Assembly (NCBI GenBank): GCA_016209385.1
Contig: JACQWB010000265.1
Coordinates: forward strand, 13,977 to 77,976
Source of the DNA: Candidatus Rokuibacteriota bacterium
GTDB taxonomy: Bacteria > Methylomirabilota > Methylomirabilia > Rokubacteriales > CSP1-6
Direction of reading: 5' to 3'
Length of the DNA stretch: 64,000 nt
Below, piece after piece: positions 112-16,344 of the stretch; within the stretch, counting starts at the first letter, position 1, and every line of letters begins with the position of its first letter. The notes under the pieces are model-generated. The model searched no databases and was not told the DNA's origin. It was given only the letters and a program-made list of their open reading frames with translations. A program made the translations under genes and the position numbers.

Positions 112-3100
112 ATGCGCCTCGAGCGTCTAAGCACCAACCGTTGGTGGGGCGACCTCACGGGCTACCGGGAGGACCTCAAGAGCCCGTTCACATTGCAAGG
201 GTTCCGCATCGCGGAAGGCTGGCCCGCGACGGTGACGCTCCCGCCTTACCTCGCCGATCTCGAAGATGGCTGGCGGACCCTGATCGTCGCCGCCGTGGCG
301 GAGATCGCCGAGTCTGTGTTTGCTGACCCCGAGACCTCGAGCAAGAACGTCATCTATGTCTCGGTCTCAGTTCCTGACCACATCCCCGTCGTCACCAAGG
401 TTGGCGGAGACCGCATCACGCCGGGCGACACCTTCGTCGGGATCTACGTCCATCACGCCAAGCGCTACCGCTTCGCCGCGCGGTTCGGCGAGGGGAAGAC
501 CGTGCTGGACCTGGGATGCGGAGTCGGCTACGGGAGCCGGATGCTGGCCCAAACGGCCCGGCAGGTCGTGGGGATCGAAATCTCCGCGGAGGCTGTGACG
601 TACGCCTCGCACGCGTACCACGGTCCCCGGCTTTCGTTCGGCGTCGGTGATGCGCGACAGCTCCCCTTCCCTGACGGCACGTTCGACCTCGTGGTCTGCT
701 TTGAGATGATCGAGCAAATCCGCGAGCAGCAGCAGATGCTGAAGGAGATCGCGCGGGTCCTGCGCCCCGGAGGGCAGCTGATTATCAGCACTCCCAACAA
801 GCTCATCTACGAGCGCTTTCCGGACCCAGACCACTTCCACTGCGGGCTCCTCGAACGGCGAGAATTTGAGCACCTCCTCCGCGCGGAGTTCAGCCAGGTC
901 CAGCTCTGGGCCCAGCCCAGGTTCCGGGATCTCGCTGAGATCACACTCGAGTTCGAAATCGAAAGAGATGTTCACGACGGCCAGGAGATGTTTATCGCCG
1001 TCGCCACTGGATCCCGGCGGGTGGCGGCCTTCTCAGCCAGGCGTGGCATCCCCGAGGGTCAGACGCCGCGGCGGCTCAAGGTTGTCGTGGCCACCGCGGG
1101 TAATCCGATCGCGACCTCCAGCTACTACGAGCGAGCCCTCCGCCGGCACCACGATGTCCGGACGTGGGGCCCGACCATGGACGACGGGACGCTGGGCCAG
1201 TGGCAGGCCGTGGCCGACCAGCACGCTCTCAAGGCCGCCGGCAGCGCGGAAGAGAAGATCGCGCTGCTGCGAGGGCTGATCCGCCCGGCCGATCACCCAT
1301 GCCCCAAGGGGACGCCCGACGTGAGAGAGCTGCTCCGGACCCTTCCGGCCGGGTGGCGCCCGGATCTCTTCCTCTGGATCGACAACGGCCCTGACTTCCT
1401 GCCGCTCGGGCTGGAGGCGCTGGATTGCCCCACAGCCTGCCTCATGGGCGACAGTCACACCCAGCTCGACTGGCGCCTCCGGTACGCGCAGCTCTTCCAG
1501 CACGCCTTCGTGATGTTCAACCGCCAGCACATCCCGGCCTTCCAGGCGGCCGGGTGCGCCAGCGTGCACTGGCTGCCTGCAGCGTGCGATCCCCGCGTCC
1601 ACCGGCGATTCGCCGTGGAGAAGGCCTTCGACGTCGTCTTCGTCGGCCAGACGCTCAGGCAGTGGCACCCTGACCGCGTCCGCCTGCTGGAGCGCCTCGC
1701 CGCGGCAGGTCTGAGCGTCCACGTGGCGACGAAGATCCTCGAGGAGATGGCGCTGGCGTTCGCCCGCGGGCGGCTCGTCTTCAACCGGAGCCTCGCCGGC
1801 GACCTCAACATGCGCGTCTTCGAGGCCCTCGCCACCGGGAGCCTCCTCCTCACCGACAGCCTCGCCCCCGAGTCAGGGCTCGAGGAGCTCCTGCGGGACC
1901 GCGAGCACCTGGTGCTCTACGACGAGGACAACCTGGAAGCGTTAGCCCGCTACTACCTCGACCACGCCGACGAGCGGGAGGCCATCGCCGCGCGGGGCCG
2001 GCTCGAGGTCCTGCGCCAGCACACGTACGCCCACCGCGTCGCCTCGCTCCTCGCGGCGATCCTGGGCGAGGACGCCGAGCCCTCTCCCGCCGCGGCGTCG
2101 GATCTCACGCAGGCCGCGGGTCCTGTCGCCCCCTCCCCACGCCTTCGGCGTCGGGGGCCCAGCCCCACGCTCCTCGCCACCCCCGCCCCACCCGCTTCGC
2201 GGGTACCCGGGGACCCCCGGCTCGTCGCGTGGGGCGCCCCGCTCGCCGCACCACCCGCGGCCCGCGAGGCCGAGCCGGTTAGCCCCGGCGGAGACGCGGC
2301 CCAGCTCGCCGCCTACCACAGCCAGCCTCGTCCCGAGGTCGCCGCGCTGGTGCCGCCGAGTGCCCACCGGATCCTGGATGTGGGCTGCGCCGGCGGAGCG
2401 CTCGGGCGCCTGCTGAAGGACCGGGGCGGCGTGGAGGTCGTGGGAATCGAGGCCAGCGCCGACGTCGCCCGGGTGGCCGCCGGCCACCTGGACCAGGTCT
2501 TCTGTCTCGACCTCGACGACATCCAGAGCCTCCCCTTCCCCGATGGGTGGTTCGACTGCATCGTCTGCGCCGACGTGCTCGAGCACCTGAAAGATCCCGA
2601 GCTGACGCTCGGCGTCCTGCTCCGCTACCTCTCCGCCGAGGGGCGGCTGGTCGCGAGCATCCCGAACGTCCGCCACAGTTCGGTCCTCCTCCCGCTCCTG
2701 GTGGACGGTCGCTGGCGCTATCAGCCGGAGGGGATCCTGGATCGCACCCACCTCAGGTTCTTCACGCTGGCCGAGATCCTGGAGCTGCTGCGAACGGTGG
2801 GCTTGGAGGCGGATTCCCTGAACGCGGTGACCACGCCCCTGCCCGAGGCGTGTAAGGTCCTCCGGGAGGCCGTCGAGCGCCTGGGTGGCGACCCCGCGAG
2901 GTTCGACCAGGAGGCACACGTCGTCCAGTACCTGGTCACGGCCCATCCCGCTGCTCGCCCCAAACCACGCGCGCCTCAGAGCGTGACGACGGCAACGCCC
3001 GCGGCGAGCGTCATCATCCCGGTCTGGAACCGGGCCGAGTACACTCAGGCCTGCCTGGAGGCGCTCGCGCGGACCGCCACGTTCGAGCTGGCCGAGGTCA

Positions 3101-5157
3101 TCGTCGTGGACAACGGGTCCACCGACGAGACCTCCCGGCTCCTGGCCGACTGGGCCGATCGGGTGCGGGTCATCACGAACCGAGAAAACCTCGGTTTCGC
3201 CCGAGCCTCAAACCAGGGCGCGCGGGCAGCGCGCGGGGAGCTCCTCGTCTTCCTGAACAACGACACGGTCCCTCAGCCCGGCTGGCTGGAGGCGCTGGTG
3301 AAGGAGGCCCAGGATCCCACCATCGGGATCGTCGGCGCTCGCCTCCTCTACCCGGGGAGGGAGACCGTGCAGCACGCCGGCATCGTCCTCGGCCCGGACG
3401 GGATCCCGGACCACATCTGGCGCGGGGTTCCTGCCGACGACCCGCGGGTCTCCGAGTCGAGGGATCTCGACATGGTGACCGGCGCCTGCCTCCTCATCCG
3501 GAAGAGCCTCTTCGAGCGCCTGGGCGGCCTCGACGAAGGCTACCGGAACGGCTGCGAGGACGTGGATCTCTGCCTGGCCGCCCGCCGCCAGGGCTACCGG
3601 GTCCGCTACTGCGCTGACGCGATGGTCGAGCACCACGAAGGCATGACCGAGGGGCGCTTCGCCCACGTGCGGGAGAACCTCCAGCGGCTCTTCGCCAAGT
3701 GGGGGCCCACGCTCGAGAGCCTCCCGCGCTATTCAGAAGACGTTCTTCGCCCCGGTCCTTCCCCGGCGCCGGTCACCGCGATCTGGGAGGGAAGCTTCTT
3801 CTGCCACCACAGCCTGGCCGCGGTCAACCGTGAGATCTGCCGCGAGCTGCTGGGCCGCGGCTTGGACCTGGGGCTGGCCAACTACGAGCCTCCCGAGTTC
3901 GACCCCCGCCAGGAGCCGGGGTTGGCGGCTCTGGCAGAGCGTCTCGACCATCGCCCGGCAGGAGCCCGGATCCGCGTACGCCATCGTTTCCCTCCTGATT
4001 TCTCCCGGCCTGCCGAGGAGACGCTCGTGCTCATCCAGCCGTGGGAGTTCGGCGCCGCGCCGGTTGACTGGGTGGAGGGAATTCGGCGGAACGTGGACGA
4101 GCTGTGGGTGCCCTCCCAGTATGTTAAAGATTGTTTCGTCTCGAGCGGCGTCGCCGGCGAGAGCGTCGTGGTGATCCCCAACGGCTTCGACCCGGCCATC
4201 TTCCATCCCGACGCTCCCGCAATGAACCTCCCCACGGCCAAGCGGTTCAAATTCCTCTTCGTGGGCGGGAGTATCTCGCGGAAAGGGATCGATGTGCTGC
4301 TCGCGGCTTACCTCGAGGAGTTCAGCGCGGCCGACGACGTCTGCCTCATCATCAAAGACCAGGCCTACTACCGCCACAGGCTCGACACCGCCCTGGGCGA
4401 CCTCACGCGACGCGCCGACGCGCCCGAGGTCCTCTACTTCTACGATGATGTCCTTCCGCAGCAGATGGCCGGCTACTACCGGGCGGCAGACTGTCTGGTC
4501 CATCCGTTCCGCGGCGAGGGTTTCGGAATGCCGATCCTCGAGGCGATGGCATCCGGCCTGCCGGTCCTGGTCACCGACTACGGTCCGGTCCGGGAGTTCT
4601 GCCCGGAGGATGCCGCCTGGTTCATCCCCTGCCGGACCATCGCCTTCCCGGAGCCGCGCGTTGATCACCTGAAGACGGTCGGCCATCCGGTCTGGGCAGA
4701 GCCTGATCGGACCGCGCTCCGAGCGTTGATGCGGCATGTCTCCGAGCACCCTGAGGAGTGCAGGGCGCGAGGCCGGCGGGCTGCCGAGGCTGCCCACCGC
4801 CGCTTCACCTGGGCCCACGTCGCCGACCGATACGCCGAGAGGCTGACAGCTCTGGCCAGCAGCGATACAGCCGCCGAGCGCGGAATCGGGCCCCTGCTCG
4901 CCAGGGGAATCCACCTCCTCCAGTCCGACAGGCTCAAAGAGGCCGCAGGCGTCTTCCTGGAGGCCGCCCGCCGCGAGCCCCAGAACCTGGAGGCGCTGGT
5001 CGGTGTGGCTCACTGCGCCCTGGCCCTGGGCGAGACCGAGCTGGCGCGCGGGTTCCTCAAACACATCCTGGCCGTGGACCCCGAGCACGAGGGGGCCAGG
5101 GCGAGCCTGGCCGCTCTCGACGTCGCCGAAGCACCTGAGGAGGTGCCGGCACGATGA
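112..5157 (+). CDS. Six-domain glycan-modification megaprotein (1681 aa), ordered N to C: class I SAM methyltransferase, CgeB-like GT-B domain, Pro/Ala-rich linker, second SAM methyltransferase, GT2 glycosyltransferase, GT4 (group 1) glycosyltransferase, TPR. The reading frame is open to window base 1, so the gene may be truncated at its 5' end.
   Basis: SAM-binding motifs VLDLGCGVGYGSRMLA (aa ~133) and ILDVGCAGGALGRLL (aa ~755). GT2 block SVIIPVWNRAEYTQACLEAL...VVDNGSTDET. GT1/GT4 C-terminal motif EGFGMPILEAMASGLPVLVTD. CgeB-like block WRPDLFLWIDNGPDF...AGCASVHWLPAACDP, shared with the ORFs at 8881 and 23556. TPR-like helical C-terminus. No stop in frame between base 1 and the ATG at 112, and no obvious SD. 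Confidence 0.8.
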   Translation: MRLERLSTNRWWGDLTGYREDLKSPFTLQGFRIAEGWPATVTLPPYLADLEDGWRTLIVAAVAEIAESVFADPETSSKNVIYVSVSVPDHIPVVTKVGGDRITPGDTFVGIYVHHAKRYRFAARFGEGKTVLDLGCGVGYGSRMLAQTARQVVGIEISAEAVTYASHAYHGPRLSFGVGDARQLPFPDGTFDLVVCFEMIEQIREQQQMLKEIARVLRPGGQLIISTPNKLIYERFPDPDHFHCGLLERREFEHLLRAEFSQVQLWAQPRFRDLAEITLEFEIERDVHDGQEMFIAVATGSRRVAAFSARRGIPEGQTPRRLKVVVATAGNPIATSSYYERALRRHHDVRTWGPTMDDGTLGQWQAVADQHALKAAGSAEEKIALLRGLIRPADHPCPKGTPDVRELLRTLPAGWRPDLFLWIDNGPDFLPLGLEALDCPTACLMGDSHTQLDWRLRYAQLFQHAFVMFNRQHIPAFQAAGCASVHWLPAACDPRVHRRFAVEKAFDVVFVGQTLRQWHPDRVRLLERLAAAGLSVHVATKILEEMALAFARGRLVFNRSLAGDLNMRVFEALATGSLLLTDSLAPESGLEELLRDREHLVLYDEDNLEALARYYLDHADEREAIAARGRLEVLRQHTYAHRVASLLAAILGEDAEPSPAAASDLTQAAGPVAPSPRLRRRGPSPTLLATPAPPASRVPGDPRLVAWGAPLAAPPAAREAEPVSPGGDAAQLAAYHSQPRPEVAALVPPSAHRILDVGCAGGALGRLLKDRGGVEVVGIEASADVARVAAGHLDQVFCLDLDDIQSLPFPDGWFDCIVCADVLEHLKDPELTLGVLLRYLSAEGRLVASIPNVRHSSVLLPLLVDGRWRYQPEGILDRTHLRFFTLAEILELLRTVGLEADSLNAVTTPLPEACKVLREAVERLGGDPARFDQEAHVVQYLVTAHPAARPKPRAPQSVTTATPAASVIIPVWNRAEYTQACLEALARTATFELAEVIVVDNGSTDETSRLLADWADRVRVITNRENLGFARASNQGARAARGELLVFLNNDTVPQPGWLEALVKEAQDPTIGIVGARLLYPGRETVQHAGIVLGPDGIPDHIWRGVPADDPRVSESRDLDMVTGACLLIRKSLFERLGGLDEGYRNGCEDVDLCLAARRQGYRVRYCADAMVEHHEGMTEGRFAHVRENLQRLFAKWGPTLESLPRYSEDVLRPGPSPAPVTAIWEGSFFCHHSLAAVNREICRELLGRGLDLGLANYEPPEFDPRQEPGLAALAERLDHRPAGARIRVRHRFPPDFSRPAEETLVLIQPWEFGAAPVDWVEGIRRNVDELWVPSQYVKDCFVSSGVAGESVVVIPNGFDPAIFHPDAPAMNLPTAKRFKFLFVGGSISRKGIDVLLAAYLEEFSAADDVCLIIKDQAYYRHRLDTALGDLTRRADAPEVLYFYDDVLPQQMAGYYRAADCLVHPFRGEGFGMPILEAMASGLPVLVTDYGPVREFCPEDAAWFIPCRTIAFPEPRVDHLKTVGHPVWAEPDRTALRALMRHVSEHPEECRARGRRAAEAAHRRFTWAHVADRYAERLTALASSDTAAERGIGPLLARGIHLLQSDRLKEAAGVFLEAARREPQNLEALVGVAHCALALGETELARGFLKHILAVDPEHEGARASLAALDVAEAPEEVPAR

Positions 5158-6362
5158 CCCCATCGGGCCAGCGCCTTTCCCTCTGCATGATCGTGCGCGA
5201 CGAGGAGCAGCGCCTCGCCGGGTGCCTGGCCGCTGCCCGGCCGCAGGTGGACGAGATCGTCGTGGTGGACACGGGCTCCACCGACCGGAGCGCCGAGGTC
5301 GCGTTGGGCTTCGGAGCCAAGGTGGCTCACTGGGCGTGGCGCGACGACTTCGCCGCCGCCCGGAATGAATCCCTCCGTCACGCCACCGGAGACTGGATCC
5401 TCGTCCTCGACGCCGACGAGCGGATCATCGCCGAGGAGTTCACCCAGCTCCATCCGCTCATGGAGCAGCCCGACGTCATCGGCATCGATCTCTGGCTCCG
5501 CTCCGAACTCCCTCCGGGCCAGCCGGCACCCTCGCTGGCGGCGCCGTACTGCCGGCTGTTTCGGAGCCTGCCGGGGGTCCGTTTCACGGGCAGGATCCAC
5601 GAGCAGGTGGCGCCCTCGCTTCGCGCCCTGGGCGGCAGAATCGTTCGCTCACAGGTCGAGATCCTCCATCTGGGTTACGCCGTCCCGGATGACGCCAAGC
5701 TCGCCCGCAACCTCCGCCTCCTCGCCCTGGAGCTGGAGGAGCGCCCGGACAATGCCTTCGTCCTCTTCAACCTCGGGCTGACGCTTGGAGCTCAGGCCCG
5801 GTGGCCCGAGGCGACGGAGGCGCTCCAACGCGCGCTCGCGACCCGGTCGGATCCGCTGGACCCACAGCTCCGGGCCCTGGCCTGGGCCAAGCTCGCCGAG
5901 GCCGCCCTCGCGCAGAGTCGCTGGAGCGATGCGCTGAACGCAAGCCGCCACGCCCAGGAGGGAAACGGCAAGCTGAGCCTCGCGCGCTTCGCCGAGGCCC
6001 GTGCCCGCTTCGAGCTGGGCCATACCAGGGGCGCCGAGGAGATCTTCGCGACCCTGCTCCAGGCCGCTCCGGACGCGCTCGGGATGACGCTCCACCGGCA
6101 CCTGGTGGCTCAGGCCCTCGGGATTGTCCGGCTTCGCCAGGGCGACTTCGCGGGCGCGGCCGACGCCCTCGCGCTCGCGGCGACCGACCGCGAGGATGGC
6201 GAGACGTGCTTCCTTCTGGGGAACGCCTACCTCGGTCTCCGCCGGCTCAATGCCGCCGCCCATTGGTACCGCCGGGCACAGGGCGCCGGGTACCGAGACC
6301 CGAAGCTCGACAAGCGCCTCGGCCTCTGCGAGACGGTCCTCCGAGAGCTGGAGCTGCGCTGA
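5154..6362 (+). CDS. GT2 glycosyltransferase with C-terminal TPR repeats
   Basis: LSLCMIVRDEE...[15 protein letters not shown]...[31 protein letters not shown] is a GT2 core. The C-terminal half is helical TPR-like (LGNAYLGLRRLNAAAHWYRRA). ATGA overlap with the upstream stop. Confidence 0.8.
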   Translation: MTPSGQRLSLCMIVRDEEQRLAGCLAAARPQVDEIVVVDTGSTDRSAEVALGFGAKVAHWAWRDDFAAARNESLRHATGDWILVLDADERIIAEEFTQLHPLMEQPDVIGIDLWLRSELPPGQPAPSLAAPYCRLFRSLPGVRFTGRIHEQVAPSLRALGGRIVRSQVEILHLGYAVPDDAKLARNLRLLALELEERPDNAFVLFNLGLTLGAQARWPEATEALQRALATRSDPLDPQLRALAWAKLAEAALAQSRWSDALNASRHAQEGNGKLSLARFAEARARFELGHTRGAEEIFATLLQAAPDALGMTLHRHLVAQALGIVRLRQGDFAGAADALALAATDREDGETCFLLGNAYLGLRRLNAAAHWYRRAQGAGYRDPKLDKRLGLCETVLRELELR

Positions 6363-6370: not shown

Positions 6371-8125
6371 ATGGCCGACCCCACAGTCTCCCTCTGCATG
6401 ATCGTCAAGAACGAGGCCGCGGCGCTCCCCCGCTGTCTTGGGAGCGTCGCCGGCTGGGTGGACGAGATCGTGATCGTCGACACGGGCTCGACGGATCGGA
6501 CCCCTGAGATCGCGGTCGGCTTCGGCGCCAGGGTGGTGCACTGGGCCTGGCGGGATGACTTCGCCGCGGCGCGGAACGAATCCCTCCGCCACGCGACCGG
6601 CGACTGGATCCTCGTCCTCGACGCGGACGAGGCGCTCGCCGAGGGCTGCGCGCCCCGGCTGCGCGAGCTGATCCGGAACCCCGAAGCGGTGGCGTACCTG
6701 GTCAAGATTGTCTGCCCTCGCCAGGGCGATGGCGGGCTCGTCCGCCTCAACTGGTTCCCCCGGCTCTTCCGCAATCTCCCAGGGGTGGCCTTCGAGGGCG
6801 TCATCCACGAGCAGGTCATCGGAAGCCTGGCGGGCCGCGGCAGGATCGACTACTCGGACATCATCGTGGAGCACGCGGGGTACACGCTCGCGCCGGCAGA
6901 GCTCAGCGCCAAGGGGGAGCGGAACCTTCGTCTCCTCGAGCGCCAGCTCAACGATGACCCCACCTACGCCCCGGGATGGTTCCAGCTCGCCGAGACCTAC
7001 ATGCTCCTCGGGCGAGTGGACGAGGCCATCGACGCCTACCGACGCGCGCTACGCCTGCTGGAAGTCTCCTCCCTGACGCTCTCACCCCGCGTCGTGGCTC
7101 TGGCCCTCCAGAACCTCGGTGCCGCACACCTGGCACGCGGCGATACCGAGAAGGGAATCGACCATCTCCGCGAAGCCCTCCTGCTCGACCCCGACCTGCC
7201 CCCTGCCCACGTCCACCTGGGCCTCGCTGCGCTGAGGCGCGACGACCCGGGGGAGGCGGAGAAACACTTCGCTCGCGCGCTCGAAATCGCCGACCGCCTG
7301 AATCGCGAGCAGGATCCGGGCCGCGAGTACGAGATCTCGCCGTGGTTGATCCATTACCTTCGCGCCTGCGCGTTGGGGCAGCAGGGCAAGACCGACGCGG
7401 TCCGAGACGGTCTGCTGGCGGCTCTGCGACTCAACCCGGACCACGCGGAGAGCCTGTGGCTGCTTGCGCTGGCCTGCTCGGCCCTCAAAGAGTGGCCGCA
7501 GGCGCTCGAGGCGCTCGAGGCCCTGTCACGGCAGGGGCGGGATGACCTGCCGTACCACCTTCAGCGGGTCCAGGTGCTCCAGGCCCTCGAGCGCCACGAC
7601 GAAGCCGCCGCCGCCGCGCTGAGAGCCCTGGAGCGCGGTGCGGCCTCACGAGAGGCCCTCACGCTTGCCGCTCAGGCCCTGTGCCGGGACGGGCGCTGGA
7701 GCGAGGCAGCCGACGCGTACGAGAAGCTCGCCCGGCTCGTCCCTGACAACCCCCTGCCGCTGCTGGCGCTGGCCCACTGCCGGGAGGCAATGGGCGACCG
7801 GCCCGGTGCGTTCGCCGCGTATGAGCGCGCCGCCGCGATCGCTCCCGACGCCCCGCCCGTGCTCTTCGCGCTCGGGTCCTCGTGCCTGCGCGCGGGCCAG
7901 CTCGACGAAGCCGTGGCCTGCCTCGAGGAGGCGGCCGCCCGGGGCCCTGACCGGCCCGAGTACCTGGTGAACCTGACCCTCGCTCACCTGAAGCGGGGCG
8001 ACATGACACGCGCCCGCGAGGTCCTCGCCGAGCTGAGCGCCCGCGGGAGGGACCTGCCCCAGGCTGCCGAGCTCGACCGCCTCCTCCACCGCGTCGAGTC
8101 CGCCATAGAGGAGTCCTGCCCATGA
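6371..8125 (+). CDS. GT2 glycosyltransferase with long C-terminal TPR domain (paralog of 5154..6362). The six-frame ORF 5801..8125 has a spurious N-terminal extension; the start is taken at the ATG at 6371.
   Basis: [44 protein letters not shown]...[31 protein letters not shown] is near-identical in motif order to the preceding gene. About 380 aa of TPR-like repeats follow. The start lies 9 nt after the upstream stop. Confidence 0.75.
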
Positions 8126-8877: not shown

Positions 8878-8880
8878 GAG

Positions 8881-11019
8881 GTGGCTCCCGTGTCGCCCAT
8901 GACCATCCTCACCTTTAACTGGAGCGAGCCGTTCCTCCACCTGCTGGCGAAGACCGGCCACCAGCTCGTCGTCTGCGACTGGATGCGGCCGTGGAATCCC
9001 GCCCACCGGCCGGTCGCGGCAAACATCCGCCGAGTCTCGTCGGAAGCCGACGCCCGCCAGCTCCTGGCCGACGGGCGTGTGGACTACGGGCTCGCCCTCA
9101 GGGTAGACGATCTCCTCTGGCTTGGCGAAGAGCGGACCCCGACCTTCTTTGTTGCGCGCCATCCGCTCCGCGACCAGGTGGTCGATGGGACTGCCTGGGC
9201 CGCAGGCCGTATCCGCGACCTGGTGGCGACACGTCTGGGAACGCACGGGCGGTTCGTCACAACATCCCCGCTGGTCCACCAGAGCTGGGGATTGGACGGC
9301 CCGGTGATCCCACCCGGGCTCGACCTTGCGGACTACGGCGGCTACACCGGGCACGTCCCGAGCGTGCTGAGCGTCGGTGACCCGGACGACGAGCGGGACT
9401 CGATGCCCGGCCTCGAGTTCCTCAACTCGGTGCTGTCCAACTTCTACTGGACCGTCATCCGCGTGACCCGGTTCCTCCACCACCGTGATGGAGAAGTCTG
9501 GGAGGACCTCAAGGCCGATTACCGCCGCCACCGGCTCTTTGCGTTCGCGCCCCTCGATCCCGACGCGGACGGCTACGGCCTGCCGCTGCTCGAGGCGATG
9601 GCCACAGGAATGCCCGTGGTCACGACGCCGCACCCCACCTCTCCCGTTCGCGAGGGTATCGACGGGTTCGTGGGTGAGGATCAGGAGAGCTTCGCGCGCT
9701 GGACAACCAGGCTTCTGTCGGATCCCGCCCTCGCGCACCGGCTGGGGGAGCAAGCGCGCCGGCGCGTGGCTGAGCTGTTCCCGCTCCAGGCGTTTTGTGA
9801 GCAGTGGGAGCAGGCTCTCTCGCACTGTGGTGGGGACGCCCGCGTCAAGCGTCTGCACCCCGCGGTAGACGCCTTACCGGATCAAGGCAGGACCCCCGCG
9901 ATGTCCGAGACCCGGAGGCGAGTCGTCCACCTCCGCCGCAGGCCCGAACGCCTGAAGATCCTGGTGAGCGTCGGAAACCATCCGACGCTCCCATCGGCGT
10001 ACTACGCGCGCGCGCTTCGCACGCGTCACGACGTGCTGACCTCCGGCCCGCCCCTCGATGACGAGCGGCTGGCCTCGACCCGGCAGGACCTGGAGCTGCG
10101 CAACCCGTTCAGATCGAAGGAGTCCGTCGGCGAAGCGATGGAGCTCCTCCGGCGTCTCAGACGCGCGCCCGACATCCCCATCCTGGAAAAGCACCCCCCG
10201 ATCACGGATCTCCTCGACCGGCTCCCCCGGAACTGGCGGCCGGACCTCTTCATCTGGTTCGACGACGACGTCCGCGACTTCATGCCGCAGGGGGTGGAAC
10301 GCCTCGACTGCCCCACCGCCTGCGTCATCAGCGATTTCCACATCGAGGGCCGCTTCAGGCTCGACCGCGCGCGCGCGTTCGATCACGTGTTCGTCATGTA
10401 CGACCGTCGGCACGTCCGCTACTTCGCGGAGGCCGGCTGCCGGAGCGTGCACTGGCTCCCGACCGCGTGCGATCCGGCGATCCACCGCGGCTTCGACGTC
10501 GAGAAGGCCTTCGATATCGTCTTCATCGGCCAGACCCGGCCCTCGAACAACCCCGACCGCTTCCGCCTACTGACCCGGCTCATGCGCGGTGGGTTCGACG
10601 TATTCGTGACAACCAAGTACCTGGAGGACGCGACGCTCGCCTTCTCCCGCGCGCGGATCGTCTTCAACTGCAGCCTGGTCGGCGGGCTGATCCAGCGGGT
10701 GTTCGAAGCCTGCGCCTCCGGGAGCCTCCTGCTTACCAATCGACTGGCGCCGGAAACCGGGCTCGACGAGCTGCTGCAGGACCGCGTCCACCTGGTCTGC
10801 TACGACGACCACAACTTAGACGCGCTCGCGCAGTACTACCTCGAGCATCCCGACGAGCGCGAGGCAATCGCCCGCGAAGGTCAGCGCGAGGTCCTGGCGC
10901 GCCACACGTACGCCCACCGCGTCGAGAGCCTCTTGACGGCGGTCTTCCGCCCGGCGGCGACCGTCTTACCCCCGGTGCCGACCCGTGGCGCTGTGCTCGT
11001 CCCCGTGAACGCCCCCTGA
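8881..11019 (+). CDS. CgeB-like (DUF3880 + group-1 GT-B) glycosyltransferase, 712 aa
   Basis: C-terminal 350 aa is collinear with aa 320-660 of the megaprotein (NWRPDLFIWFDDDVRDF...CPTACVISDFH...AGCRSVHWLPTACDP...RARIVFNCSLVGGLIQRVFEACASGSLLLTN...LDALAQYYLEHPDEREAIAREGQREV). The N-terminal half contains a GT-B-like E-A-M-A motif (LPLLEAMATGMPVVTTP). GTG start at 8881; an alternative ATG lies at 8899. Confidence 0.7.
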   Translation: MAPVSPMTILTFNWSEPFLHLLAKTGHQLVVCDWMRPWNPAHRPVAANIRRVSSEADARQLLADGRVDYGLALRVDDLLWLGEERTPTFFVARHPLRDQVVDGTAWAAGRIRDLVATRLGTHGRFVTTSPLVHQSWGLDGPVIPPGLDLADYGGYTGHVPSVLSVGDPDDERDSMPGLEFLNSVLSNFYWTVIRVTRFLHHRDGEVWEDLKADYRRHRLFAFAPLDPDADGYGLPLLEAMATGMPVVTTPHPTSPVREGIDGFVGEDQESFARWTTRLLSDPALAHRLGEQARRRVAELFPLQAFCEQWEQALSHCGGDARVKRLHPAVDALPDQGRTPAMSETRRRVVHLRRRPERLKILVSVGNHPTLPSAYYARALRTRHDVLTSGPPLDDERLASTRQDLELRNPFRSKESVGEAMELLRRLRRAPDIPILEKHPPITDLLDRLPRNWRPDLFIWFDDDVRDFMPQGVERLDCPTACVISDFHIEGRFRLDRARAFDHVFVMYDRRHVRYFAEAGCRSVHWLPTACDPAIHRGFDVEKAFDIVFIGQTRPSNNPDRFRLLTRLMRGGFDVFVTTKYLEDATLAFSRARIVFNCSLVGGLIQRVFEACASGSLLLTNRLAPETGLDELLQDRVHLVCYDDHNLDALAQYYLEHPDEREAIAREGQREVLARHTYAHRVESLLTAVFRPAATVLPPVPTRGAVLVPVNAP

Positions 11020-11046: not shown

Positions 11047-12372
11047 ATGAGCCCCCCTGTCGATGTGGTCATAATCACCTTCAACAGGATCGACCTCACC
11101 AAGCGCACGATCGAGTGCTACCGGGGCCACGTGCGCCACCCGTACCGGCTCATCTGCGTGGACAACGGCTCCACGGACGGCACGCCCGATTACTTGCGAT
11201 CGGTCGCGGACTTCGTGATCGCCAACTCAGCCAACACGGGGCCCAGCCGGGCACGAAACCTGGGCTACGCGGTCACTACCTCGGAATACGTCCTCTTCAG
11301 CGACAACGACATCGAGTTCGAGGCCGACGTGATCACGCGTCTCGTGACGGCCATGGAGCACGAACCGCGCCTTGGCCTCGTGGCACCTCTGCTGCAGCAC
11401 TATCTCGAAGAGACGGGCAACTTCCCTACGGGAGCCAGCCTCGCCGAGATGACGGCCGTGGCGGCCGCCCGGGCCCCCGCCTCGCTTCAGGACATTCCCC
11501 TCCTGATGTCCACGGTCGTCCTCGCGCGCCGGTCGATGATCGAAGAAATCGGCCCGTGGGACACCGGCTACGGCCTGTACGGCCACGAAGACTCCGACTA
11601 CACGCTGCGGGCGCGCGCGCGAGGTTGGCGCGCCGCCATGGCCCCGGACTGCTATGTCCATCATTCGGGCGCAGGGATCCCCGCCTTGCCGAACCGAGAG
11701 GCCATCGCGGAGCAAAGCCGCCAGGTCCTGCTCCGGCGCTGGGGAATAAAGGGCGCCAACGTGACTGGCATCGTGGACCCGTCCTCTTTCCCCACGCACA
11801 CGCGGTCCGCGCCGTCCCAACTTCGCGATCATCTGAAACTGATCGAGCGATACGCCGCGACGTGCCGGCTCCCCGCCGACTGGCCGGTCATCACCGAGCG
11901 TTTCCTAGCCGTGATGCCGAAGATCGGTCAGGATGTTCTGGTCGTCGGCTGCGGCAGCGGCGAGGCCGTGAAGCAGCTTCGCCATCGATACCGACGCCAC
12001 GCTATCGGCCTCGTCCCAACGCTCAGGCCCGACGACGTGTACGGAGTGCAACAGGGCCACGGCTACGAGCTGCCGTTCGACGACGGGAGCTTGGACGCCG
12101 TGATCGCGCGGCATAGCCTCGAACACAGCCCGATGCCGCTCGTGGATCTCCTGGAGACCCGGCGCGTGCTGAGGCAGAACGGGCTGGCGATTCTGTCGCT
12201 GCCAGCTCCCTCCGACGGCACCCAGCCGTCCCTCCTTCCCCTGGCACTCACCGAGGCTGAGTGGCGACGCTTGTTTGCAATCGCCGGGCTGGCCCTGCTG
12301 CACGCAGACACCGAGCGCGGAGGCGAAGGCCCCGTGCACCGGTACATTCTGCAAAAGGCCGGCGATCCGTAG
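11047..12372 (+). CDS. Bifunctional GT2 glycosyltransferase / class I SAM methyltransferase
   Basis: N-terminal VDVVIITFNRIDLTKRTIECY...CVDNGSTDGT (GT2). C-terminal VLVVGCGSGEAVKQL...LPFDDGSLDAVIARHSLEH (type-11 methyltransferase). Confidence 0.75.
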   Translation: MSPPVDVVIITFNRIDLTKRTIECYRGHVRHPYRLICVDNGSTDGTPDYLRSVADFVIANSANTGPSRARNLGYAVTTSEYVLFSDNDIEFEADVITRLVTAMEHEPRLGLVAPLLQHYLEETGNFPTGASLAEMTAVAAARAPASLQDIPLLMSTVVLARRSMIEEIGPWDTGYGLYGHEDSDYTLRARARGWRAAMAPDCYVHHSGAGIPALPNREAIAEQSRQVLLRRWGIKGANVTGIVDPSSFPTHTRSAPSQLRDHLKLIERYAATCRLPADWPVITERFLAVMPKIGQDVLVVGCGSGEAVKQLRHRYRRHAIGLVPTLRPDDVYGVQQGHGYELPFDDGSLDAVIARHSLEHSPMPLVDLLETRRVLRQNGLAILSLPAPSDGTQPSLLPLALTEAEWRRLFAIAGLALLHADTERGGEGPVHRYILQKAGDP

Positions 12373-12388: not shown

Positions 12389-13237
12389 ATGCGGCCCGGA
12401 CCCCAAACGACCCTCGCCCCGGAGACGCGGACCGACCCCGCTCCCGCCCTCTCCGCCCGCGCGATCCGCCGGATCGTGCTGGAGCAGGCGAAGCGCGCTA
12501 ACGTGGGACACATCGGCTCTGCGCTTTGTGTCGCCGACATCCTGGCCGCGCTGTACGGAAGCATCCTTCGGATGGCCCACCCGGCCGATCCCAAGCGGGA
12601 CTGCTTCATCCTCTCGAAAGGCCACGCCGCCCTCGCCCTCTACGCGGCCCTCTTCCTGAAAGGGTGGCTCAGCCGCGAGGCGCTCGACACCTATTGCGCG
12701 GACGCGAGCCTCCTGGGGGTACACCCTGACCACGCGCTGCCGGGCGTCGATTTCTCGACGGGCTCGCTCGGTCACGGGCTTCCGATGGGCGCAGGAGTAG
12801 CGCTGGGGGCGCGCCTCCAGCGCTCATCCCGGCGCATCTTCGTCCTGGTAAGCGACGCGGAGTGCAACGAGGGCTCGCTCTGGGAGGCGGTGATGTTCGC
12901 GGCGCACCACCGGCTCGCCAACCTGGTCGCCATCGTGGACCTGAACGGGCAGCAGGCGCTCGGCCGCACCGACGCGATCCTGGCGCTCCCCGGCCTGGAG
13001 GGCCGCTGGCAGGCGTTCGGCTGGGACGCGCACGTCGTCGACGGCCACGACGGGGCCGCAATCGAGCGGACCATCGCCGGGCTCGACACGCGGTCGGGCC
13101 CGCCCCACGTCTTGATCGCGCGCACGGTCTTCGGCAAGGGCGTCTCCTTCATGGAACGGCGCCTCGAGTGGCACTACCTGCCGATGTCGGAGGCGCAGTA
13201 CCGGCAGGCGCTGGCGGAGGTCTGCGGAAACCGATGA
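12389..13237 (+). CDS. Transketolase, N-terminal (ThDP-binding) subunit of a split transketolase
   Basis: GHIGSALCVADILAALYG...LSKGHAALALYAALFLKG...GSLGHGLPMGAGVAL...LVSDAECNEGSLWEA, which is the transketolase pyrophosphate-binding domain. GGAGGA SD lies 9 nt upstream of the ATG. The track ORF 12275..13237 is extended 5'. Confidence 0.8.
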   Translation: MRPGPQTTLAPETRTDPAPALSARAIRRIVLEQAKRANVGHIGSALCVADILAALYGSILRMAHPADPKRDCFILSKGHAALALYAALFLKGWLSREALDTYCADASLLGVHPDHALPGVDFSTGSLGHGLPMGAGVALGARLQRSSRRIFVLVSDAECNEGSLWEAVMFAAHHRLANLVAIVDLNGQQALGRTDAILALPGLEGRWQAFGWDAHVVDGHDGAAIERTIAGLDTRSGPPHVLIARTVFGKGVSFMERRLEWHYLPMSEAQYRQALAEVCGNR

Positions 13238-14163
13238 GGGGCGCGTTCGCGACCGCGCTCATCGAGCTGGCCGCGGCGGATCCGCGGATCCTGCTGCTGA
13301 CCGGCGACCTCGGCTTCATGGTGCTCGAGCCGTTCGCCGAGCGGTTCCCCGAGCGCTTCTTCAACGCGGGCGTCGCCGAACAGAACATGATCGGGCTCGC
13401 CACAGGCCTGGCCAGGAGCGGGTTCATCCCGTTCGTCTATTCGATCGCGACGTTCGCCTCGATGCGCCCGTACGAGTTCATCCGGAACGGGCCGATCCTG
13501 CACCGCCTGCCCGTGCGCATCGTGGGCGTGGGCGCCGGGTTCGAATACGGCCACGCGGGCCCGAGCCACCACGGGCTGGAGGACATCGGCATCATGCGCG
13601 TCCAGCCCGGGCTCACGCTCATCGCTCCGGCGGATCACCGGCAGACGCGCACGGCGCTCCAGAAGACCTGGGACCTGCCGGGCCCGATCTACCTGAGCCT
13701 GGGCAAGGACGACCGGACCATCGTGCCCGGCCTCGACGGTCGCTTCGAGCTGGGCCGGGCCGACCTGGTCCACGACGGCACCGATGTCCTCATGCTCGCC
13801 ACCGGCGCCATCGCGAGCGAGGCCGTCGCCGCCGCGGACGCGCTCGCCCGACACGGGGTCGCGTGCGCCGTGATGGTCGTCGCCAGCCTCAACCCGGCTC
13901 CCACTGACGACCTGCTCGGCGTCCTCGAGCGCTTTTCCGTGGCGCTCACGGTCGAGGCCCACTACGTCGTCGGGGGCCTGGGCTCGCTCGTGTCGGAGAC
14001 GATCGCCGAGCACGGCCTCCGTTGCCGGCTCGTGCGTTGCGGGGCCCGGACGGCCCCGGACGGGCGGTCGGGAAGCAACGCGGCCCTCTCGCGTGCCCAC
14101 GGGCTCTCGCGCGACGCGCTCGTCCGGACCGTGCTCGCCGCGCTGGCCACGGTGACGGTGTAG
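13234..14163 (+). CDS. Transketolase, C-terminal (pyrimidine-binding/C-terminal) subunit
   Basis: MRGAFATALIELAAADPRILLLTGDLGF...FFNAGVAEQNMIGLATGLA...HHGLEDIGIMRVQPGLTLIAPAD. ATGA overlap with the N-terminal subunit. The track ORF 12862..14163 carries a spurious N-terminal extension. Confidence 0.8.
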   Translation: MRGAFATALIELAAADPRILLLTGDLGFMVLEPFAERFPERFFNAGVAEQNMIGLATGLARSGFIPFVYSIATFASMRPYEFIRNGPILHRLPVRIVGVGAGFEYGHAGPSHHGLEDIGIMRVQPGLTLIAPADHRQTRTALQKTWDLPGPIYLSLGKDDRTIVPGLDGRFELGRADLVHDGTDVLMLATGAIASEAVAAADALARHGVACAVMVVASLNPAPTDDLLGVLERFSVALTVEAHYVVGGLGSLVSETIAEHGLRCRLVRCGARTAPDGRSGSNAALSRAHGLSRDALVRTVLAALATVTV

Positions 14164-14165
14164 CG

Positions 14166-15350
14166 ATGGCGCGCCGAGAGGAGGGGCGGTGGGCCCGGCA
14201 CGACGGCGAGTGGCGCGACCCCGCGCAGATCGTCGCCCTCTGGGGCGACGCCGGCGCGCGCGATCCGGGTCTGCTCAGCTACCGGGCCCGGGGAAGCTGG
14301 TGGGAGACGCTCGCGGCGCTGGACGTGACCCTGCTGGTCACGCGGGAGTACGAGCACCTGGTCGTCGCGCTGACCGTCGCCGACGGGGCGCCGCGCGTCT
14401 CCTACCTGCAGGTCCCCCACCCCTCGGGCCTCGCCGTGGACCCGGCCAGCGGCTCGGTCTACCTCGCGAGCACGCGTAACCCGAACGTCGTGTACGAGCT
14501 GGCGCCCGCCGCCGGCCGGCTCGCGCGTCTGGATGTCCGGGCCGACCCGCCGCCCGGCTGCCCGCTCGTTCCGGTCCGGGCGCGCTTCCTGCCCGGCTGC
14601 CTCTACCTCCACGACCTGGCGATGATCGACGGCGCGCTTCACGCGACAGCGGTCGGCCAGAACGCCGTCATCCGCCTGCACGACGACGGCCGGTACGCGC
14701 GCATGTGGTGGCCCCGCTGCATCGAAGCGGCGTCCGGGCCGGTCTTCGGCGGCAACCACCTCCAGCTCAACTCGATCGCCGCGGGCCCGGACCTCGCAAG
14801 CTCGTACTTCTCCGCCTCGGCGGACCGACTCTCCGAGCGCCGGCCGGGTCACAGGAACTTTCCGGTGGACGGGCGAGGCGTCATCTTTTCCGGCGCCACG
14901 CGCGAAGTCGTGGCGCGGGGGCTGACACGGCCCCACTCGGCGCGCCTGGCGAACGGCCGCCTCTGGGTTAACAACAGCGGCTACGGAGAGCTGGGGACGA
15001 TCGAGGACGGCCGCTTCGTCCCGATCCTCAGGCTCCCGGGATGGACGCGCGGGCTCGCGTTTTCGGGATCCGTCGCGTTCGTCGGCACGTCGCGGGTGCT
15101 CCCGCGCTTCCGGCGCTACGCGCCCGGTCTGGACCTGGAGACGAGCCTCTGCGGCGTCCACGCGGTGGACACGGCGTCGGGGCGCGTCCTGGGGAGCCTC
15201 TTCTGGCCGGCGGGGAACCAGATCTTCGCGATCGACTGCGCGCCGACCAAGCTGACCTCCGGTTTCCCGTTCCGGGGCGGACGGCCGCGCTCGCGCCGTC
15301 AGGAACGAGCGCTCTTTTACGCCTTCGCGACCCGCTTCGAGGAGGGTTGA
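14166..15350 (+). CDS. Conserved hypothetical protein (resembles the TIGR03032/DUF4915 uncharacterised family; assigned from memory)
   Basis: The ATG follows the transketolase stop directly. Conserved-looking blocks YLHDLAMIDGALHATAVGQNAVIRL, GGNHLQLNSIAAG, LWVNNSGYGELG. No catalytic motif recognised. The family name is recalled from memory, not searched. Confidence 0.55.
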   Translation: MARREEGRWARHDGEWRDPAQIVALWGDAGARDPGLLSYRARGSWWETLAALDVTLLVTREYEHLVVALTVADGAPRVSYLQVPHPSGLAVDPASGSVYLASTRNPNVVYELAPAAGRLARLDVRADPPPGCPLVPVRARFLPGCLYLHDLAMIDGALHATAVGQNAVIRLHDDGRYARMWWPRCIEAASGPVFGGNHLQLNSIAAGPDLASSYFSASADRLSERRPGHRNFPVDGRGVIFSGATREVVARGLTRPHSARLANGRLWVNNSGYGELGTIEDGRFVPILRLPGWTRGLAFSGSVAFVGTSRVLPRFRRYAPGLDLETSLCGVHAVDTASGRVLGSLFWPAGNQIFAIDCAPTKLTSGFPFRGGRPRSRRQERALFYAFATRFEEG

Positions 15351-15354
15351 CCCG

Positions 15355-16278
15355 GTGACGTCCGACTTCCGGCTCCTCATGATCAGCGCGATGTACGAGA
15401 ACGGGGGCAACGCAACCCACCGGTTCCTCGACGGCCATCCGCAGCTCTTCGTCTATCCGTTCGAATCGCAGCTTGGCACCCGGCTCGTCGGTGACCACCT
15501 GGCTTCCCTCTTCCCCGTGAAGTACCGCTGGCCCGTCTTCGCCCTCCACGCGACGCCCCGCGAGGACTACGAGACCATTATCGATGAGGAGTGCCGCGTC
15601 CGGGCCCGCACCCCCCACGTGAGCAAGTTCCGCCACGTGGCGTTCGACTTCTCCGACGAAGATCGGCGGGCGATCTACGAGCGGTACGTGGGCGAGACCG
15701 GACGGTCGCGCGCCGCCAACGTGGCCGCGTTTTTCCGGGCCACCTTCCACGCGTGGCGGAACCACGCCCGGACCGGCGCGGAGGTGGCGTACGTCGGGTA
15801 CAGCCCCATCGTCGTCGTGGACGCCGACAGGATCCTGGCCGATTTTCCGCAGGCCCACGTGCTTCACGTCGTGCGCAATCCGTGGTCCGCCTACGCCGAC
15901 ACGAAGCGGCGCCCGGTCCCCCTCCCCCTGCCCCAGTACATGCTCGCCTGGACGGTGAGCCAGTACCATGCGCTGATCTTCAGCGAGCGCTTCCCCGGGC
16001 AGGTCCACATCGTCCGGGCCGAAGACATCATGGCCGGCCCCCTCGCCACCCTGGGCACGCTCTGCGACCGCCTGGGGCTCGAGCGCGCAGAGGCCCTCAG
16101 ACGGCCGAGCTGGAACAGCCAACCACTCGAGGAGGTCTACCCGTGGGGGACCCTCCGCGCGGTCACGCCCGAGGCCAACCTGGCCACCGCCCGGGAGCTT
16201 TCGGAGGAGGAGCGCGCGGATATCCGGTCCTTCGCCTGGCAGTACCTCGACGCCTTCGACTACAAGCGGTTCCTCTAG
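15355..16278 (+). CDS. Sulfotransferase-family protein
   Basis: LLMISAMYENGGNATHRFL resembles a 5'-PSB-like loop, and HVLHVVRNPWSAYAD resembles the 3'-PB RNPxD motif. GTG start with a GAGGAGGG SD upstream; an alternative ATG lies at 15379. Confidence 0.65.
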   Translation: MTSDFRLLMISAMYENGGNATHRFLDGHPQLFVYPFESQLGTRLVGDHLASLFPVKYRWPVFALHATPREDYETIIDEECRVRARTPHVSKFRHVAFDFSDEDRRAIYERYVGETGRSRAANVAAFFRATFHAWRNHARTGAEVAYVGYSPIVVVDADRILADFPQAHVLHVVRNPWSAYADTKRRPVPLPLPQYMLAWTVSQYHALIFSERFPGQVHIVRAEDIMAGPLATLGTLCDRLGLERAEALRRPSWNSQPLEEVYPWGTLRAVTPEANLATARELSEEERADIRSFAWQYLDAFDYKRFL

Positions 16279-16344
16279 CAGGGTACTGAAAAACTCGACT
16301 CGAATGCGCCAATCATCCACCCGCACACGGCCGAAGCGCTCCGA

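Follow-up and report, generated by a model that had tools for sequence, protein, structure and literature searches.

Gene content of the locus

The window, by which we mean the whole 64,000-nucleotide stretch that we analysed, comes from a Candidatus Rokubacteria (Methylomirabilota) MAG, an uncultured soil or groundwater bacterium. Positions 1-17455 of the plus strand hold a co-directional block of genes, each overlapping or nearly abutting the next, that encode soluble glycosyltransferases (GTs), methyltransferases (MTs), an acetyltransferase, a split transketolase, a sulfotransferase-family protein and an epimerase. The gap from the end of this island (17455) to a downstream flagellin gene is 0.76 kb, and the flagellar genes are followed by a gene for a CgeB-like GT joined to a TPR-like superhelix:

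1..5157, +, megaprotein, C-terminal 1718 of 2047 aa (Pfam; frame open to base 1; 100% identical to deposited protein P0046)
466-882, megaprotein methyltransferase domain MT1 (aa 119-257; Pfam)
1045-2097, megaprotein CgeB-like GT-B domain (PF13524, E 2e-30)
2338-2814, megaprotein MetW-like methyltransferase domain MT2 (aa 743-901; Pfam)
2998-3648, megaprotein GT2 domain (aa 966-1137; Pfam, E 7e-35)
3754-4827, megaprotein GT4 GT-B domain (Pfam, aa 1376-1497)
4915-5115, megaprotein TPR domain (TPR_19; aa 1602-1668; Pfam)
5154..6362, +, GT2-TPR paralogue A, 402 aa, candidate GmaR-type protein glycosyltransferase (Pfam GT2 and TPR)
6371..8125, +, GT2-TPR paralogue B, 584 aa, long TPR array after a GmaR-type GT2 domain (Pfam)
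8122..8877, +, hexapeptide (left-handed beta-helix) acetyltransferase, NeuD/PglB/VioB-like (Pfam Hexapep, E 3e-33)
8881..11019, +, 712-aa protein with two GT-B modules (PF13524, E 4e-30; PF13692, E 1e-14)
11047..12372, +, GT2-methyltransferase fusion, 441 aa (Pfam GT2, E 8e-22; Methyltransf_11, E 1e-10)
12389..13237, +, split transketolase, N-terminal (ThDP-binding) subunit (Transketolase_N, E 4e-34; start refined)
13234..14163, +, split transketolase, C-terminal (pyrimidine-binding and C) subunit (Transket_pyr, E 3e-30; Transketolase_C, E 3e-18)
14166..15350, +, DUF4915/TIGR03032 protein (PF16261, E 1.6e-49)
15355..16278, +, sulfotransferase-family protein, Sulfotransfer_3 (PF13469, E 1.3e-12, 48.8 bits; cut-off 27)
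16418..17455, +, SDR nucleotide-sugar epimerase/dehydratase, 345 aa (Pfam Epimerase, E 5e-46)
18219..19049, +, flagellin, 276 aa, D0/D1 only, presumed acceptor (Pfam Flagellin_N and Flagellin_C)
19142..19465, +, FliS-like flagellin chaperone (Pfam FliS, E 1.5e-10)
19469..20911, +, FliD filament cap (Pfam FliD_N and FliD_C)
21199-21546, 115-aa ORF in the position that FliT occupies in relatives
23556..25418, +, CgeB-like GT-B (aa ~12-295) with TPR-like superhelix (aa ~296-575), 620 aa (PF13524, E 1.6e-24)

A preliminary description of this DNA had outlined a 16-kb co-directional block, which is borne out and in fact extends over positions 1-17455. Most of the gene content that it proposed was recovered as well: two GT2-TPR paralogues (Pfam; 47% identity over 268 aa), a second CgeB-like GT, a GT2-MT fusion, a split transketolase, a sulfotransferase-family protein and an epimerase (Pfam; PDB 6yak and 4zrm), together with a short, D0/D1-only flagellin of 276 aa in which Pfam finds only Flagellin_N and Flagellin_C. 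Its gene list left out the DUF4915 gene.

Between the island and the flagellin gene lies a minus-strand coiled-coil ORF (17509-17931) with direct repeats on both sides. We prefer this ORF to one on the plus strand (17374-18093), which has no Pfam match and a low-complexity translation and is probably spurious. Because of the minus-strand ORF, the island adjoins the flagellin gene but does not form one uninterrupted operon with it; together with the direct repeats, this ORF means that co-transcription of the island with flagellin is not implied here. The flagellin gene has a strong ribosome-binding site (AAGGAGG). A cluster of Ser/Thr residues at about aa 165-200 of its product is conserved, and positions 169, 170, 179, 187, 189, 192 and 199 are invariant in an alignment of three Rokubacteria flagellins (that of the window and two from the related contig L054). 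The FliS-like gene has the same position in L054 and in a second relative, QRah8SQH. The 115-aa ORF has no Pfam match and no similarity to the FliT of L054 (E 0.23), so its assignment as FliT is positional only.

None of the island proteins has a membrane segment (no 19-residue hydrophobic window exceeds 1.6, except in a buried transketolase helix), and Pfam reveals no flippase, polymerase or phosphoglycosyl transferase within 1-17455. The island also has no nucleotidyltransferase for sugar activation, and its proteins all score below the cut-offs of the NCBIfam models. Horizontal transfer was considered as the origin of the island and rejected: its GC content (0.67-0.72) is that of the rest of the window, and there is thus no compositional sign of transfer.

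A giant fused enzyme and two relatives of GmaR

The first gene of the island had been described as encoding a 1681-aa six-domain megaprotein. Pfam supports the six domains, but the length and the domain count are artefacts of the window edge: the reading frame is open to base 1 and the full protein, deposited as P0046, has 2047 aa, so that 329 residues with one further, N-terminal GT-B domain lie upstream of the window. The megaprotein of the related contig L001 is 57-67% identical to that of the window over aa 312-1656. For the flagellin, GT2-TPR paralogue A and the 620-aa protein of the window, an exact-sequence look-up gave no deposited record.

The two GT2-TPR genes follow directly. The start of paralogue A (ATGA) overlaps the megaprotein stop, and that of paralogue B was refined to the ATG at 6371; orthologues of B in L001, L054 and QRah8SQH are 579-584 aa long. 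In both proteins the TPR array is immediately C-terminal to the GT domain, with several Pfam TPR families above threshold. The GT domain of GmaR (PDB 22ao, 204 aa) matches paralogue B at E 7.5e-35 and paralogue A at E 5e-26; the VDTGSTD motif is identical, DADE (DxD) aligns with DADE and HEQ is also conserved. GmaR (Lmo0688) of Listeria monocytogenes, which puts GlcNAc onto flagellin (PMC9638930), likewise has an N-terminal GT2 (GT-A) domain of ~190 aa followed by TPRs, is soluble and cytoplasmic, and is encoded beside flagellar genes. Given the homology of A and B to GmaR, a canonical type of flagellin glycosyltransferase is probably present here in two copies. Unlike GmaR, these are paralogues embedded in a far larger set of GTs and MTs, a context that implies an oligosaccharide and not just one GlcNAc.

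The resemblance is to the catalytic module of GmaR. For the linker/antirepressor part, no PDB chain but the 204-aa GT chain matched paralogue A at E <= 1e-4, and the antirepressor part was absent from the 60 PDB matches listed for paralogue B. No MogR-type repressor gene is evident. A and B are therefore relatives of that module and not orthologues of the thermosensor. The second-best PDB relative of both is SunS (E 8e-20 for B, E 7e-16 for A). The SunS/ThuS peptide S-glycosyltransferases share the order of GT2 and helical TPR-like domain and glycosylate a polypeptide in the cytoplasm. SunS is also the best NCBIfam match of A and B, yet at 58-71 bits against a cut-off of 350. In contrast to SunS/ThuS loci, no glycocin precursor or bacteriocin genes adjoin A and B, and the context is flagellar.

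Three CgeB-like domains

All three domains that had been called CgeB-like score above the PF13524 (Glyco_trans_1_2) gathering cut-off of 25 (106.1, 105.2 and 86.9 bits), so the failure of HMM assignment that the preliminary description had named as a refutation did not occur. Long motif blocks had been thought to run through all of them; these are shared by the megaprotein and the 712-aa protein (WRPDLF, CPTAC, SVHWLP, VFN.SL) but not by the 620-aa protein, the CgeB-like domain of which is a homologue with 31% identity and diverged motifs (for example, WTPD and RARIVLN). The domains of the megaprotein and the 712-aa protein are 53% identical, and on sequence grounds the latter protein is a recent paralogue of the CgeB-like domain of the former. 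Within it, a GT4-type C-terminal half (aa 204-295) precedes the CgeB-like domain (aa ~360-700). The domains found here resemble CgeB in family score and GT-B fold. They differ from this spore maturation protein in having no sporulation context and in being fused to TPRs or to other catalytic domains. A literature search found no report tying the CgeB/PF13524 family to flagellin glycosylation, and nothing pertinent on DUF3880 or on FgtA together with tetratricopeptides.

An AlphaFold2 model of the 620-aa protein (hereafter CgeB-TPR) has a GT-B fold of the GT4 type followed by a helical repeat. By architecture it can be likened to FlmG of Caulobacter crescentus and Brevundimonas (pseudaminic/legionaminic acid), which has the same two parts. 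In FlmG, a TPR array serves the acceptor and a GT-B domain the donor (PMC7591256; bioRxiv 10.1101/2022.03.25.485807), and the TPR domain binds flagellin (PMC7591256). The order of TPR and then GT-B in FlmG is reversed here, with GT-B at aa ~12-295 and the helical repeat at 296-575. The FlmG system is also similar in its short flagellin (about 275 aa) and in cytoplasmic modification before export, which is predicted for the system described here. Genes for pseudaminic or legionaminic acid biosynthesis (NeuB/PseI-type and others) do not occur among the Pfam matches of the window's genes, and Maf/DUF115 (PF01973) is absent from the Pfam matches of all genes scanned.

Accessory enzymes

Downstream of the GT2-TPR genes is a variable accessory block (8122-17455, 9.3 kb) comprising the acetyltransferase, the double GT-B protein, the GT2-MT fusion, the split transketolase, the DUF4915 protein, the sulfotransferase-family protein and the epimerase. 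The acetyltransferase had been called NeuD-like. Its hexapeptide family is clear and NeuD/PglB/VioB (TIGR03570) is its best NCBIfam model, although at 120 bits the score is below the cut-off of 160.8. The N-terminal transketolase subunit matches a split-chain transketolase (PDB 6yak) at E 3.6e-58, and the C-terminal subunit starts in an ATGA overlap with it; our literature search found nothing that combines transketolase with flagellin glycosylation or glycosylation islands. The DUF4915 protein scores below the TIGR03032 cut-off and has no relative in a PDB sequence search. A PDB sequence search also gave no match for the sulfotransferase-family protein, in which, on inspection of the sequence, the 5'-PAPS-binding (5'-PSB) motif is diverged rather than canonical. 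The SDR protein is closest in the PDB to UDP-glucose 4-epimerase (4zrm, E 9e-40). Judged by domains alone, the glycan would be methylated, acetylated and possibly sulfated.

Gene order in related contigs

A CgeB-like gene comes directly after flgK-flgL-fliW-csrA in each of five independent related contigs; fliW-csrA are, as established in Bacillus, regulators of flagellin translation. Three of the relatives (L001, L054 and QRah8SQH) have the order flg(F)G-A-H-I-J-M-N-K-L-fliW-csrA, CgeB-like gene, megaprotein, GT2-TPR of ~400 aa and GT2-TPR of ~580 aa. In L001 the start of the CgeB-like gene overlaps the csrA stop, and in L054 and QRah8SQH the two GT2-TPR genes are followed by fliC-fliC-fliS-fliD-fliT. 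The CgeB-like gene is also immediately 3' of csrA in L002 and L006; in L002 it is the sole GT beside the flagellar genes, with no GT2-TPR or megaprotein after it. A further contig, L011, has CgeB-TPR and the megaprotein fused in one polypeptide of 2766 aa, followed by both GT2-TPR genes.

The core module thus consists of a CgeB-like GT-B/TPR protein, a megaprotein of ~2000 aa (GT-B, MT, CgeB-like GT-B, MT, GT2, GT4 and TPR) and two GmaR-type GT2-TPR proteins, and in relatives it is located in the late flagellar cluster, between flgK-flgL-fliW-csrA and the flagellin genes. The window differs in that the CgeB-TPR gene has moved away, to 23556-25418, and the accessory block has been added; accessory content varies between the window, L001 and L054. 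The conserved gene order in relatives makes the flagellar link strong. The wider family is not tied to flagella, given that flagellar genes occur within 10 kb in only 2 of ~45 more distant loci (from Armatimonadota, Sericytochromatia and other groups). One CgeB-TPR homologue with 44% identity, P0008, lacks flagellar genes in the 10 kb to each side of it.

A probable flagellin glycosylation system

On the evidence of gene content and order, the locus is probably a flagellin O-glycosylation island of this Candidatus Rokubacteria (Methylomirabilota) bacterium. O-glycosylation of flagellin or another protein, as initially suggested, is strongly supported by the conserved flagellar gene order, the lack of membrane proteins and the separateness of a Wzx/Wzy locus. 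The solubility of all island proteins points to modification in the cytoplasm, where newly made flagellin would be glycosylated before export via the flagellar type III system. Flagellin would be held by the TPR arrays, a role demonstrated by experiment in FlmG and suggested for GmaR, while one or both of the GmaR-type inverting GT2 domains would put the first sugar on Ser/Thr in the S/T-rich segment (about aa 165-200). The megaprotein, CgeB-TPR and the 712-aa protein could extend this to an oligosaccharide through their GT2 and GT-B domains, the latter GT4-type or CgeB-like and probably retaining, with O-methylation by the fused methyltransferase domains. The accessory enzymes would supply or decorate sugars by 4-epimerisation and acetylation, possibly with addition of a two-carbon ketol unit by the transketolase and sulfation by the sulfotransferase-family protein.

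Could the same enzymes instead make a lipid-linked or secreted polysaccharide (LPS O-antigen, capsule or EPS), next to flagellin genes by coincidence? The window does contain a complete Wzx/Wzy locus 20-45 kb downstream (37.5-62.2 kb, minus strand; WecA-like, Wzx, Wzy/ligase, Wzc, Wza, GT4s and methyltransferases) through which such a product might be exported, and GT2, GT4, methyltransferase, acetyltransferase and epimerase genes are typical of polysaccharide loci too. However, that locus lies on the opposite strand, with GTs of its own, and is separated from the island by unrelated genes; the island encodes no membrane protein; four of the GT polypeptides carry TPR protein-binding arrays; and in several independent contigs the core genes are inside the flagellar cluster, with no polysaccharide export genes nearby. 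We regard a polysaccharide product as very improbable. Another protein target (hook-associated protein, FliD, pilin or S-layer), or a cytoplasmic polymethylated oligosaccharide comparable to the mycobacterial methylmannose polysaccharides, is unlikely, as the Rokubacteria module sits between fliW-csrA and the flagellin genes and GmaR, the closest characterised GT2-TPR relative, acts on flagellin.

Within a flagellin glycosylation system, the enzyme that starts the glycan is less clear-cut. CgeB-TPR had been proposed as a non-canonical flagellin glycosyltransferase; its architecture of GT-B and TPR stands, but that proposal treated the two GmaR-type GT2-TPR proteins as accessories. As the initiating enzyme, CgeB-TPR would form a third class after the GmaR and FlmG types, with the GT2-TPR proteins acting later or at other sites. 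In five related contigs, its gene alone of the module is joined to the csrA operon, and in L002 it is the only GT gene adjoining flagellar genes; in the protein, a complete GT-B fold is linked to a TPR-like superhelix, the two parts of FlmG. Yet the domain order is opposite to that of FlmG, homologues outside Rokubacteria are mostly away from flagellar genes, and the full module conserves two GmaR-homologous enzymes, both of which are encoded here. Initiation by CgeB-TPR is therefore possible but doubtful. On sequence, A and B are at least as likely to start the glycan, and CgeB-TPR may be an elongating rather than an initiating enzyme.

This kind of system is known; the very large fused enzymes are what is unusual here. 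The islands of Pseudomonas, Clostridioides difficile and Campylobacter, which have a variable block of GT, MT and sugar-modifying genes beside fliC-fliS-fliD that differs between close relatives, are similar in this arrangement and in the turnover of accessory content. In contrast to them, the locus described here has no Maf or nonulosonic-acid genes, fuses catalytic domains to an extreme degree (2047-2766 aa) and includes a split transketolase, a DUF4915 gene and a sulfotransferase-family gene.

Flagellin glycosylation influences filament assembly, motility, phage recognition and immune recognition. To our knowledge, the known classes of flagellin glycosyltransferase are few (Maf, FlmG and the GmaR/GT2-TPR type). 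With this locus, the GmaR type would reach into an uncultured phylum of soil and groundwater, where it is part of a conserved module with very large fused GT/MT enzymes and CgeB-TPR proteins in the flagellar operon. A broader proposal, which we offer tentatively and consider less than even in probability, is that a soluble assembly line of ~12 catalytic domains in four polypeptides, each with a TPR array, builds the Rokubacteria flagellin glycan, and that CgeB-TPR, co-transcribed with fliW-csrA, represents a third flagellin GT class, FlmG-like in logic but with reversed order and a different GT-B family. The triad of CgeB-TPR, GT4 and GT2-TPR in Armatimonadota and Sericytochromatia would then reflect widespread cytoplasmic protein O-glycosylation in uncultured phyla. 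Direct action of CgeB-TPR on flagellin would make it a new class of enzyme. The accessory block, with its transketolase, DUF4915 protein and sulfotransferase-family protein, points to unusual sugar chemistry, and the fused megaproteins (2047-2766 aa) could serve as natural models for the organisation of successive glycosylation and methylation steps on a protein.

Gene order in related flagellar clusters

We retrieved the genomic contexts of homologues of a 620-aa protein in the window that joins a CgeB-like domain (PF13524, a GT-B glycosyltransferase fold) to TPRs, and of a multidomain megaprotein. Three related contigs, L001 (84 kb), L054 (82.5 kb) and QRah8SQH (52 kb), share the order flgG-flgA-flgH-flgI-flgJ-flgM-flgN-flgK-flgL-fliW-csrA, followed by a module of four genes that encode a CgeB-like protein (573–589 aa), a megaprotein (1643–2053 aa) and two GT2-TPR proteins (~400 and ~580 aa). 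In L054 and QRah8SQH, two flagellin genes (products of 275–276 aa), fliS, fliD and fliT come next. The CgeB-like gene lies directly 3' of csrA in L002 and L006 (Rokuibacteriota genome) and overlaps the csrA stop codon in L001; the csrA-adjacent gene product of L054 is 40% identical to the 620-aa protein over its full length. In L011, a Methylomirabilia MAG, a single fused polypeptide of 2766 aa (10013–18313) combines the CgeB-TPR protein with the megaprotein; it has three PF13524, four GT2 and one methyltransferase domain plus TPRs, and both GT2-TPR genes lie downstream. Upstream is a sugar-modification set: GHMP kinase, SDRs, split transketolase, two radical-SAM enzymes (one B12-binding), TylF methyltransferase and DegT aminotransferase. 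This gene order and the fusion indicate that the four genes form one functional module, which belongs to the late flagellar cluster in this lineage.

The window carries a rearranged version of this locus, which we mapped using Pfam, NCBIfam and inspection of start codons:

1–5157, +, megaprotein
5154–6362, +, GT2-TPR A
6371–8125, +, GT2-TPR B
8122–8877, +, hexapeptide acetyltransferase
8881–11019, +, 712-aa double GT-B protein
11047–12372, +, GT2-methyltransferase
12389–13237 and 13234–14163, +, split transketolase (two genes)
14166–15350, +, DUF4915/TIGR03032 protein
15355–16278, +, Sulfotransfer_3 protein
16418–17455, +, SDR epimerase
17509–17931, minus, small coiled-coil ORF
18219–19049, +, flagellin
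19142–19465, +, FliS-like protein
19469–20911, +, FliD
21199–21546, +, 115-aa ORF
21543–23525, +, hybrid histidine kinase/response regulator (GAF/PAS)
23556–25418, +, CgeB-like/TPR protein (620 aa)

Here the CgeB-TPR gene follows the kinase gene, there is a single flagellin gene, and a 9.3-kb accessory block (8122–17455) occupies a variable slot. In L001 that slot contains a 162-aa ORF, and in L054 it contains genes for an HD protein and a B12-radical-SAM enzyme. Stop and start codons overlap at 5154/5157, 8122/8125 and 13234/13237, which implies translational coupling through the island, and GC content is 66–72% across the entire window. A kinase/response regulator follows fliD-(fliT) both in the window (GAF/PAS hybrid) and in QRah8SQH (PAS), suggesting a conserved regulator tied to the flagellar cluster. 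Directly after the CgeB-TPR gene, a minus-strand gene for a Uma2-family putative endonuclease (25439–26095) sits at the boundary at which gene order departs from that of related contigs.

An ORF at 17374–18093 is not credible. The gap between island and flagellin gene instead holds the minus-strand ORF, the product of which is a heptad-rich coiled-coil protein, flanked by a direct repeat of ~42–70 nt (17410–17451 and 18016–18057, 81% identical). The epimerase gene overlaps the first of the two copies at its 3' end. The repeat-bracketed segment may be a small insertion that separates fliC from the island.

Glycosyltransferases and accessory enzymes

Nearly all domain calls of the preliminary description were borne out with strong E-values. 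Its megaprotein of 1681 aa and six domains requires extension: the frame is open to base 1 and runs past the left edge of the window, and the deposited full-length protein (P0046) has 2047 aa, the N-terminal ~320 of which form an additional GT-B domain that lies outside the window. P0046 matches PF13524 in three stretches and Glyco_trans_1_4 in two, and the true order is GT-B, methyltransferase, CgeB-like GT-B, methyltransferase, GT2, GT4, TPR. The window and L001 megaproteins are 57–67% identical over residues 312–1656, with a swapped N-terminal module (methyltransferase in the window, GT1_4 domain in L001). Of the three CgeB-like domains to which the preliminary description assigned shared sequence motifs, only those of the megaprotein and 712-aa protein (53% identical) contain the literal strings, whereas the motifs of the 620-aa protein have diverged, with collinear alignment to the other two at 31% identity.

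Both GT2-TPR paralogues match the crystallised catalytic domain of GmaR (22ao; E = 7.5e-35 and 5e-26) and conserve its VDTGSTD, DADE (DxD) and HEQ motifs; the next-best relatives are the peptide S-glycosyltransferases SunS and ThuS. GmaR, from Listeria, comprises a glycosyltransferase (~180 aa) and TPRs and puts GlcNAc on flagellin (PMC9638930). On this homology, two predicted copies of a known flagellin glycosyltransferase type, previously unrecognised here, are present.

Among the accessory proteins, the transketolase subunits match a split-chain transketolase (6yak, E = 3.6e-58) and the SDR is nearest to UDP-glucose 4-epimerase (E = 9e-40). The sulfotransferase-family protein exceeds the Pfam threshold with an atypical, diverged 5'-PAPS-binding motif (YENGGNAT); the usual motif is of the R/K-S-G-T-T type. 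Directly upstream (the pair spans 14166–16278) is the DUF4915/TIGR03032 gene, missing from the earlier gene list, for which we found no characterised relative. No protein of solved structure is related in sequence to either product.

Polysaccharide or protein modification

A set of glycosyltransferases and sugar-modifying enzymes could also constitute a polysaccharide locus. We reject this reading because no island protein contains a membrane-helix-like hydrophobic 19-residue window, and the island lacks a flippase, polymerase, initiating phosphoglycosyl transferase and exporter. Moreover, the window has a complete Wzx/Wzy-type locus elsewhere (37551–62200, minus strand), which is equipped with its own glycosyltransferases; unrelated genes lie between it and the island. 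It encodes WecA-like (PF00953), DegT, PIG-L and WbqC proteins, several GT4s, AsnB, Wzx, a GT2, methyltransferases, two CDP-alcohol phosphatidyltransferases, a Wzy/O-antigen ligase-like protein, Wzc-like and Wza. The Wzc-like protein (58435–61131) has a C-terminal SPOR peptidoglycan-binding domain. A further minus-strand set (28886–38043: NTP_transf_5 nucleotidyltransferase, ABC exporter, HPr-kinase-like protein, two asparagine-synthase homologues and a PqqD-domain protein) resembles lasso-peptide/RiPP clusters.

Judged from gene content and order, the island is probably a flagellin glycosylation system; we hold any single step of the following scheme with much less confidence. Flagellin would be synthesised at a late stage of flagellar assembly (in relatives, under the control of FliW-CsrA) and captured in the cytoplasm by TPR arrays. 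A GmaR-type inverting GT2 would place the first sugar on Ser/Thr of a conserved S/T-rich D1 segment, in which T169, S170, T179, S187, S189, S192 and S199 are invariant in an alignment of three flagellins. GT-B and GT2 domains would extend the glycan, fused methyltransferases would methylate it, and accessory enzymes would vary its structure through epimerisation, acetylation and, possibly, two-carbon transfer and sulfation.

The wider family

In the 10 kb on either side of P0008, a 44%-identical homologue of the 620-aa protein, there are no flagellar genes. A search of GTDB species genomes for a single conserved peptide pattern gave 48 loci, the majority of them in Armatimonadota (Chthonomonadales), Sericytochromatia and other uncultured groups. 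About 20 of these keep a triad of CgeB-TPR, GT4 and GmaR-like GT2-TPR, the latter two often fused into one ~1230-aa protein. The triad loci (L005/L029, L009–L052) usually lack flagellar genes within 10 kb and sometimes have DegT, hexapeptide acetyltransferase and GFO_IDH genes nearby. Flagellar rod genes occur within 10 kb in only two of the loci. In the family at large, the targets may thus be other proteins, or the flagellin genes may be located away from these loci. Only for the Rokubacteria/Methylomirabilota branch do we regard the flagellar assignment as secure.

Both flagellin glycosylation islands and flagellin glycosyltransferases of the GT2-TPR type are already known. The literature that we searched contains no link between CgeB-family GT-B/TPR proteins and flagella. 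What is new is their occurrence in a flagellar setting, together with an unusual accessory gene set, extreme domain fusion (polypeptides of 2047–2766 aa) and a conserved four-gene module inside the flagellar cluster of an uncultured phylum.
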